NCBI GenBank assembly: GCA_964187785.1
Contig: OZ076409.1
Span: 3,164,001-3,228,000 of the forward strand
Origin: Amphiscolops sp. MND2022
Taxonomy: Eukaryota
DNA: 64,000 bases
Direction: 5' to 3'
Shown here: positions 645 to 2,210 of the stretch, piece by piece
Layout: each line of letters begins with the position of its first letter
Numbering within the stretch: position 1 is the stretch's first letter
The notes under the pieces: generated by a model
Told to the model about the DNA's origin: nothing
Database searches by the model: none
What the model saw: only the letters and a program-made list of their open reading frames with translations
Made by a program: the position numbers and the translations under genes

Positions 645-2210
645 AATGTTATTGCGATGTATTTTGCTGTTCTATTCGATTTGTAATCCCTAATTCACTA
701 AATTTGAACAGAGATGTTTTAACGATGATTAGTATAAATGAACAAGTCGTAAAGAAAGTAGCAGGAAATTAGTAAGGTGAATAGGAAAGTTCATCCAATG
801 TTCATCGCAGTTGTAAGTGTGTCAAAAGAGATTACTCAGTTTTTCAGTATTATAGTTTCTGAAGATGAAAATGAGATGTCTTTTCAAGTAAAATTCGACG
901 TGAGGTGTTCAACTGGATTGTAGCTTGTCGCAATTTCGGTCTGAGTAATCGCTAATGGCGGTCCAAAATACAGCAGTTCACGTGTCTTTTCAGGCTGGTA
1001 AGACGCTAAATCTCTTACCAGCCGACTCTTATTGGCTATTGCCAGTTGGTGCTAATTGGTAAGTCACGTGACCGGTGTTGTGAACTGCCGCAAGTTGGCC
1101 AAACCACATGGTACATCTACATATGCTAATTATGACTAATCATCACTTTACAATGTCGCAATTACCTGCACGCAGCATCATGGTTTCTATAGCAACTCAA
1201 ATCATTCAATAATGTACTAATTTCAAGTCAAACCAGAGTAAACTGTATCACAGGATGGGAAAACGATGTTTTCCAACTAATTCCAGCACTAAAATCAATA
1301 CTTCAAAACTAAAGATGGAAATGCGATGAATTTGTCAGAGTATTTGCTGATTTTCAAGCCTAGTTTAGCTCTGGATGAAAATGCGATGAATGGTGGTCTT
1401 TTCGCTCGAAAATCAACACGATATAAACTGACGATGATAAAAGGATGAACTCGTCTTCAAAATGAACGATTTCCAGCACAATTTAAATCGACGATGGTAA
1501 AAGGATGAACTCTCCTCGAAAATAACTAATTTCCAGCACTAGTGAAATTGACGATGAATTCAGGATGAATTCGGTCGATAAAACAGGTGAAGCAGTTAAT
1601 TCTACAGTAAAGACAAATGTACGATGAGCTTAGGATGAATACATTCAATAAAACAGCAAAATCAAATGTATCAAATTCCAATGATGAGTTTAGGATGAAC
1701 TCGTGAATTAAAACAGCAACTATCGAAGCAATTCAAACTAGCGATGAGTTTAGGATGAACTCATCCACTAAAATGGTAAATCTCAACACAAGATGAAATC
1801 ATGATGAATTAATGATGGATTTGCTAAACAAATCAGATAACCAGCGCAATCACTCTTTTTTAGGATGGGTTAAGGATGTACTTTCTCATTTCTCTTCTAT
1901 GCTAGTATGACGATGAATAAAGGATGTCTTACTGTCCTTAAGAAATGAGAAGCACATTTGTGAGTTTCTACATGAAATATGACGATGAATTAGTGATGAG
2001 TTTTACTAAAATGAGTCCCGTAAAATCCGCTGATGGATTTATGATGAAAGGTAAAGTTTATTGTCCCATGCGTGGTTCATTCGCAATCTCGGAGATGGGA
2101 TTGCGATGAACTTTATTAACAGCACCAGTAAATCCGCTGATGGATTTAAATGAAATCAAATCAGTATCATCACTAAATTAGACGATGAATTTGTGATGTA
2201 TCTTTGATGA
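645..2210. repeat. Array of GATG-N7-GATG units with variable spacers, upstream of gag
   Basis: GATG pairs exactly 11 bp apart start at 713, 864, 1254, 1314, 1374, 1433, 1493, 1553, 1623, 1683, 1743, 1792/1803 (triple), 1864, 1912, 1984, 2032, 2094 and 2184 (triple). There is one inverted copy (CATC at 792/803) and degenerate copies at 645 and 2139. Confidence 0.85.

Follow-up and report, generated by a model that had tools for sequence, protein, structure and literature searches.

The question raised by this locus is what a row of paired GATG words is doing beside a retroelement gag gene, and to which part of the element it belongs. The window, by which we mean the whole stretch of 64,000 nucleotides of Amphiscolops sp. 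MND2022 DNA that was analysed, carries the row between positions 645 and 2210. Our answer, to which we give a probability of about one half, is that the approximately 19 two-core sites lie in the U3 region of a gypsy LTR and serve a dimeric DNA-binding protein of the host as a multi-site enhancer.

The array itself is clear. Between 600 and 2400, 38 of the 40 GATG words on the plus strand are paired at exactly 11 bp, and on that strand there is no GATG pair at all at any other spacing from 5 to 19 bp. The 20 pair matches to GATG-N7-GATG make up 18 units, as two are triples (1792/1803/1814 and 2184/2195/2206). There is also one inverted unit at 792-806 carrying the full motif pattern, so that intact two-core units number about 19 in total, with 18 of the 19 in the same orientation. 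In 500 dinucleotide shuffles of 645-2210 the mean number of pairs was 0.09 and the maximum 2, against the 20 observed, and the phased GATG-N7-GATG array described in the first-pass annotation is thus real. The units are laid out as follows.

1254..2209, plus strand: dense array of 16 intact paired units with a period of about 60 bp
1254, 1314, 1374, 1433, 1493, 1553, 1623, 1683, 1743, 1803, 1864, 1912, 1984, 2032, 2094 and 2184, plus strand: unit starts in the dense array
1792 and 2206, plus strand: third cores in the dense array
2139: decayed single-core unit within the dense array
645-659: degenerate outlying unit, the first of those in 645..878
713-727, plus strand: outlying unit
792-806, minus strand: outlying inverted unit
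864-878, plus strand: outlying unit

With 1803 taken as a unit the successive periods are 60, 60, 59, 60, 60, 70, 60, 60, 60, 61, 48, 72, 48 and 62, exactly as first listed for the dense part, and then 90. The outliers reported at 713 and 864 and the inverted unit at 792 were all recovered, together with the degenerate unit at 645-659. A scan of the window for any repeated 4-mer at fixed spacing gave no second comparable array, the sole exception being one word within a 172-bp satellite.

Other features of the window may be recorded here. Young tandem arrays are found at 17416-22392 (3 copies of a 1.71-kb unit), at 57786-59821 (about 3 copies of a 718-bp unit, with a 121-codon ORF inside) and at 38015-40190 (a 172-bp satellite with a 750-bp higher-order period). 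From 42855 to 55800 there is a dispersed repeat of about 50-100 bp, with at least 7 copies on both strands, which likely represents the ends of a small mobile element. Near-perfect long palindromes, almost loopless and foldback- or MITE-like, occur at 3144-3551, 2643-2712, 2713-2766 and 13021-13308 (about 400, 70, 54 and 290 bp respectively), and have only sub-threshold matches to miRNA models. A 305-aa ORF at 14294-15211 on the plus strand scores above the cut-off for a Scabin-like ADP-ribosyltransferase domain (PF22596, E 6e-7).

The paired site is longer than two GATG words, and can be written RN-GATG-R-n-WWW-RN-GATG-W. There is a purine at +4 in 18 of the 19 units, and at +9 also in 18, A or T occupies 54 of the 57 positions at +6 to +8 over the 19 units, and the flanks are biased too, with a purine at -2 in 17 units and A or T at +15 in 18 (binomial p from 2e-3 to 5e-8 for the flanking and inter-core positions). 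Each site thus has two RN-GATG half-sites 11 bp apart, with an A/T tract between them. Direct repeats of this kind are typical of sites that two subunits contact from the same side of the DNA, and we infer that two subunits would read the paired site here on one face of the duplex. That the inverted unit has the full pattern argues for recognition of double-stranded DNA.

The locus had been proposed to be a helically phased protein-binding platform, and this is still the best reading, with the qualification that the phasing is strict inside the pairs and only suggestive between them. The large deviations from 60 bp (+10, -12, +12, -12 and +30) are each within 1.5 bp of whole helical turns, for which p is 0.005 if they are five independent events and 0.04 if they are three, and since the deviations alternate, 15 successive places between 1265 and 2105 have a core at intervals of 59-62 bp. 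However the regularity between pairs was spotted after the fact, and slippage among cores spaced at 11 bp would yield the same steps of about 11 bp, which weakens the support that phasing gives to the enhancer reading.

The spacers had been described as unique and largely dissimilar. Largely dissimilar they are, but not unique, as there is residual homology among them: 4 of the 105 spacer pairs have Z above 3, and the mean Z is 0.55 overall and 1.4 for neighbours. The pairs 1433/1493 and 1623/1683 are 69% and 67% identical, and within the array the sequence at 2023-2049 recurs at 2130-2155. The spacers are eroded tandem copies, derived by local tandem duplication.

The tandem origin makes it necessary to ask if the cores are simply what is left of a decaying satellite. 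In the 11 consecutive units from 1254 to 1864 all 8 core columns are invariant, as against 0 of the 47 other columns, and identity outside the cores is 0.38 compared with 0.28 for random sequence. From 27,000 simulated arrays, none of the 7,369 that matched in identity gave 8 invariant columns, the maxima being 4 under star decay and 7 under serial duplication, a strong but inexact result, since the cores served to anchor the units and the model allowed neither indels nor variation in rate. A single monomer decaying uniformly therefore fails as an account, and the suggestion that the motif has been kept beyond simple satellite decay is upheld.

A coding repeat was considered and rejected, in agreement with the earlier view. 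Two of the invariant bases would have to fall at the wobble position of differing codons, the periods break the reading frame, and stop-free translations of the array gave no protein matches.

The array is not confined to this one place. One public sequencing run carried the stretch, at a low share, and there was no RNA run among those listed. Eleven contigs aligned, from which 8 pieces were listed, lying on gag and at 400-543, 1025-1123 and 1709-2016; the uncovered stretches are uninformative. The tally across copies used record 5 and, apart from the outermost 30 bases, for which differences were not given, records 6 and 7; record 8 and the three pieces not listed did not enter it. In these 3 contigs the canonical cores were changed at 0 of 32 positions against 35 of 194 elsewhere (Fisher p=0.006, weakening to p=0.02 with the extra core at 1792 counted as core), it being noted that the contigs are of depth 2 and from a single run, and that aligning at a likeness of at least 80% may have favoured copies with intact cores. 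Record 5 has lost the 1792 core and retained the 1803/1814 pair, in one contig the 11-bp spacing is preserved through an insertion after 1915 together with a deletion at 1922, and 1025-1123 is identical in one other contig. The array is thus multi-copy, and its cores look spared. The idea of a motif and spacing maintained in copies of one element finds partial support: cores and 11-bp spacing are kept in the three contigs and other positions vary, but none of the 8 pieces listed from the 11 contigs bridges the array and gag.

We now turn to the element. The only part of its coding sequence within the window is the following.

1..600, minus strand: 5' part of a Ty3/gypsy gag ORF, 200 codons, running off the window

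The Gag piece shares 91.5% identity with residues 1-200 of P0009, a protein of 502 aa with CCHC knuckles (PF00098) and, in the atlas, Retrotrans_gag and Ty3_capsid look-alikes. On these grounds the retroelement gag that had been reported beside the array can be accepted, and assigned more closely to Ty3/gypsy. The longer Gag relatives fall into 54 clusters, and the five that were looked up contain 380, 188, 182, 30 and 67 members. In P0117, from a sister gag family, Gag is followed by a weak match to protease (E 0.008, below the cut-off) and then by the start of RT, and in its relatives P0130 and P0139 the order is RT-RNase H-integrase, as in gypsy. The pol region is thus known from relatives, and for the present element lies outside the window. 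Three gypsy pol relatives (P0176, P0189 and P0207) have a precomputed dUTPase domain (PF00692). We take the element proteins to resemble gypsy proteins of acoel flatworms. A PDB sequence search with P0117 gave no matches, and no DNA loci of Gag relatives were confirmed among 36 pattern matches in viral contigs or 125 in metagenome contigs.

The position of the array within the element depends on where reverse transcription is primed, and the candidate features are these.

279..290, minus strand: likely primer-binding site of tRNA-Leu type, directly after ...ACA and overlapping gag codons M104-V-T-G
291..2324, minus strand: candidate 5' LTR, 2,034 bp long and bounded by TGTC...GACA; the start may instead be at 2221

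On the minus strand ...GACA is followed by TGG at 291|290, inside gag codons 103-107, and 11 of the 12 bases from 290 match the complement of tRNA-Leu(CAG) as given in PMC3413118, which may differ from the complement in this host. Across the 64-kb window that sequence has its best match at 290-279, and no other of the listed matches directly follows CA. No tRNA genes were found in the window, and upstream of the gag ATG none of the candidates examined in 600-2900 matched a primer-binding site. Steamer elements have the same layout of ...ACA followed by a Leu primer site (PMC8905726).

The protein sequences bear on the same point. Between the two gag families (11 sequences) identity reaches 0.97 over residues 104-108, and is 0.09 and 0.19 on the flanks. 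The residue before the M of the motif is D or N in 97 of the 99 proteins with the motif; the other 26 of the 125 proteins lacked the motif or its context. Codons for D and N can supply the terminal AC of the LTR, and the protein form of the site is D/N-M-V-T-G. Within the window's own gag family neighbouring residues are conserved as well, and since this includes the flanks of MVTG it is only the contrast between families that is informative. An alternative is that the MVTG island marks a protease site or an internal start.

From these features of the sequence the LTR's 3' end at 291 is supported, while its 5' end, near 2324 or 2221, is only inferred. No second copy of the LTR was found in the window, off which the element runs, so that the second LTR and the target-site duplication lie beyond it. 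A primer-binding site at 290-279, inside gag, would mean that the array is likely within the 5' LTR and not in the leader, and the first-pass annotation, which had it in a retroelement leader, needs to be amended: the likely location is the 5' LTR, and probably its U3 region. It is also likely that the first 103 codons of Gag are inside the 5' LTR, the primer-binding site then serving also as codons 104-107, and if so a 103-residue peptide would be encoded by every 3' and solo LTR of the family.

For placing the array within the LTR the following features are relevant.

443..448, minus strand: AATAAA, candidate poly(A) signal of the R region (consensus match only)
979..1070, minus strand: promoter-like cluster with CACGTG at 979 and 1065, sense CCAAT at 1035 and 1059, and a hairpin at 993-1023
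2236..2324, no strand assigned: GC box at 2236 and near-palindrome at 2315-2324, the latter also the candidate LTR start (consensus matches only)

The motifs in the cluster at 979-1070 are those known as the CCAAT and E-box motifs of promoters. The hairpin at 993-1023 has an 11-bp stem, and lies between the two CACGTG boxes and near the putative transcription start. There are 2 sense-strand ATGs in 601-970 against 17 in 971-2324, and the sense strand of 701-1050 folds better than shuffles. Both fit a transcription start near 950-1000, just past the CCAAT/E-box cluster, as the motifs would suggest. A start there would make the dense array U3, and the array is thus likely in the U3 of a 5' LTR of about 2 kb, upstream of the CCAAT and E-box motifs. 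The outlying units in 645..878 are then likely downstream of the start, and three of them (713, 792 and 864) are intact, which counts against reading the array as a U3 enhancer.

The mechanism that we have in mind is as follows. A host dimer would occupy each paired site, the two RNGATG half-sites being one helical turn apart and on the same face, with the A/T tract between them read by its shape. The row of sites would give more transcription from the LTR promoter, and copies that lose sites would transpose less, with the result that cores persist and spacers drift. We know of no factor that matches the two-core motif.

The other readings differ from this one either in what the bound protein would do or in the nature of what is recognised. 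The same DNA sites might bind a host protein as an insulator, barrier or anti-silencing platform and not as a classical enhancer, which we think unlikely but would keep well in mind. The conservation evidence applies to it equally, the family has spread widely with hundreds of protein variants (clusters of 380, 188 and 182), and repeats of the gypsy family can be insulator, silencer or enhancer according to context (PMC7168160). However the known cases, in gypsy and ZAM, are in the 5'UTR and the present array is likely upstream of the promoter. It is distinctly doubtful that the selected object is RNA, with (Y)CAUC-N7-CAUC, placed in a long leader or in the 3' copy of U3, being recognised by an RNA-binding protein and serving in packaging, export or 3'-end processing. 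The common orientation of 18 of the 19 units would fit such a role, as would the purine after the first core, giving on the sense strand words that we take to belong to the YCAY family of RNA words. The sense RNA of the dense array (1240-2221) has a folding z of -3.4 (20 shuffles), and in the predicted structure the cores are more often unpaired than other bases (0.67 against 0.45), but CAUC has no G, so that its low pairing is partly compositional, and the folding is patchy and non-periodic, only 3 of the 19 windows on the sense strand (701-1050, 1301-1450 and 2001-2250) having a local z of -2 or lower. The invariant 11-nt spacing, the symmetric A/T tract and the inverted full unit suit duplex DNA better, a leader bearing the array would hold 19 upstream ATGs, and the 24 Rfam matches with E up to 1 include none at gathering score and one within the array. 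We conclude that the RNA reading is weaker than that of a protein-binding DNA platform.

That the array is a neutral decayed 60-bp minisatellite, in which GATG pairs persist without function through slippage or conversion seeded by the cores, we regard as improbable. It would account for the residual spacer homology with neighbours most alike, for the decay of the unit at 2139 and for the steps of about 11 bp. It does not sit well with the failure of uniform decay in all 7,369 simulations or with the sparing of cores across copies. Moreover the inter-core positions are degenerate yet patterned, which is unlike the product of tract conversion, and all 60 of the look-alike loci found with the extended motif are minisatellites, homogeneous or coding repeats, or two-pair matches. 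Least probable in our estimate is a binder encoded by the element itself, which might even be the N-terminal Gag peptide present in every LTR of the family. In the non-coding DNA of transposons, VANC motifs are known to build up as tandem repeats form (PMC5735166). The 103 Gag codons that are likely in the LTR include a conserved segment that looks like a coiled coil, the identity across families being 0.37 at residues 53-75. However the N-terminal peptide is acidic and serine-rich, and, the knuckle aside, neither the window's Gag piece nor any of four full Gag relatives gave a DNA-binding family above cut-off. To our knowledge there is no precedent among animal gypsy elements for an element-encoded binder of the LTR. 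In the improbable event that an element-encoded dimer, possibly the 103-residue Gag N-terminus, does bind the phased array in its own LTR and activates or unsilences the family, this self-switch would be the counterpart in an LTR element of the VANC systems of plants, and solo LTRs would also encode the peptide. The host-factor enhancer in U3 is the reading that we carry into the comparison with known systems.

The array has a superficial resemblance to CRISPR, which was considered and rejected. CRISPR repeats are about 23-47 bp and near-identical, with unrelated spacers, whereas the units here have only 8 invariant bases each and spacers with residual homology to one another. There are no Cas domains in the 9 ORFs scanned against Pfam, of the 31 in the window of at least 100 aa.

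We looked for the same architecture elsewhere. A fixed-period pattern scan gave 1 match, which is a simple satellite, and exact-pattern scans for the extended motif, in mostly prokaryotic collections, gave 54 metagenome and 6 viral loci, none with gag or pol similarity. Of these 60 loci, 44 are minisatellites of short period, and the 16 spaced cases are satellites, two-pair matches, or homogeneous or coding repeats. One assembly with many GATG minisatellites of 10/11-bp period accounts for 22 of the 54 metagenome loci (L002, L004, L007, L008, L012, L017 and others), and no link to the element was found for these. Our literature search, mostly outside subscription journals and supplements, found no paper on the motif or the element family.

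The first comparison to be suggested was with the Su(Hw) sites of Drosophila gypsy, and it holds for a multi-site array in a gypsy-type element, but not for position. Tandem repeats are present in 19 of 49 Drosophila LTR-element 5'UTRs (PMC7168160, PMC5408687 and PMC8872304), and the Su(Hw), ZAM and Tirant cases resemble ours in being degenerate arrays of protein sites in non-coding DNA of the gypsy family, with the binding in our case presumed. Those arrays are in the 5'UTR, whereas the present one is upstream of the likely primer-binding site and likely in U3. There are 12 Su(Hw) sites in 350 bp compared with 16 units in 956 bp here, and the motif and paired architecture are different. VANC/VANDAL is similar in that short motifs were multiplied by tandem repeat formation in the non-coding DNA of a transposon (PMC5735166). 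However VANDAL is a DNA transposon with an element-encoded anti-silencing protein and single motifs of 8-9 bp, and here we have two-core sites in an LTR element.

Closer in position are the RM boxes of Sireviruses, with 8-32 copies per element, those in the long LTR mostly clustered in its upper half and upstream of the promoter, as described in PMC2829016. The likeness is in position and copy number, and for the RM boxes too a function is only putative. The RM box is a palindrome with a CGG-CCG core in plant Ty1/copia elements, as distinct from a GATG direct repeat in Ty3/gypsy. For the inferred role the nearest case is the U3 of ERV9/LTR12, which has 5-17 tandem repeats of about 41 nt with conserved host-factor sites upstream of the start, to which the binding of host factors is established (PMC11853044). 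A recurrent motif conserved beyond the rest of the repeat is found in both. In ERV9/LTR12, a primate retrovirus, the repeats form subtypes close to one another that have CCAAT, GATA and G-rich sites, whereas in our gypsy element the spacers are near-random and the site is a two-core direct repeat at 11 bp. ERV9/LTR12 has CCAAT (NF-Y) in the unit, and the sole CCAAT of our dense array is at 1678, so that the array is not a member of LTR12 but may well work like one.

Arrays of host-factor sites in LTRs are well known, and the class is not new. What sets this array apart is that it is unusually clean, as decay has left little beyond the 16-bp two-core site, which can be taken as a readout of the preference of the candidate binder, and the two-core motif could be used directly as bait to fish out the factor. 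The family has hundreds of members in the host genome, through which the array would spread the site genome-wide. The layout is also of interest, as in this element a 2-kb LTR likely encodes the first 103 residues of Gag.
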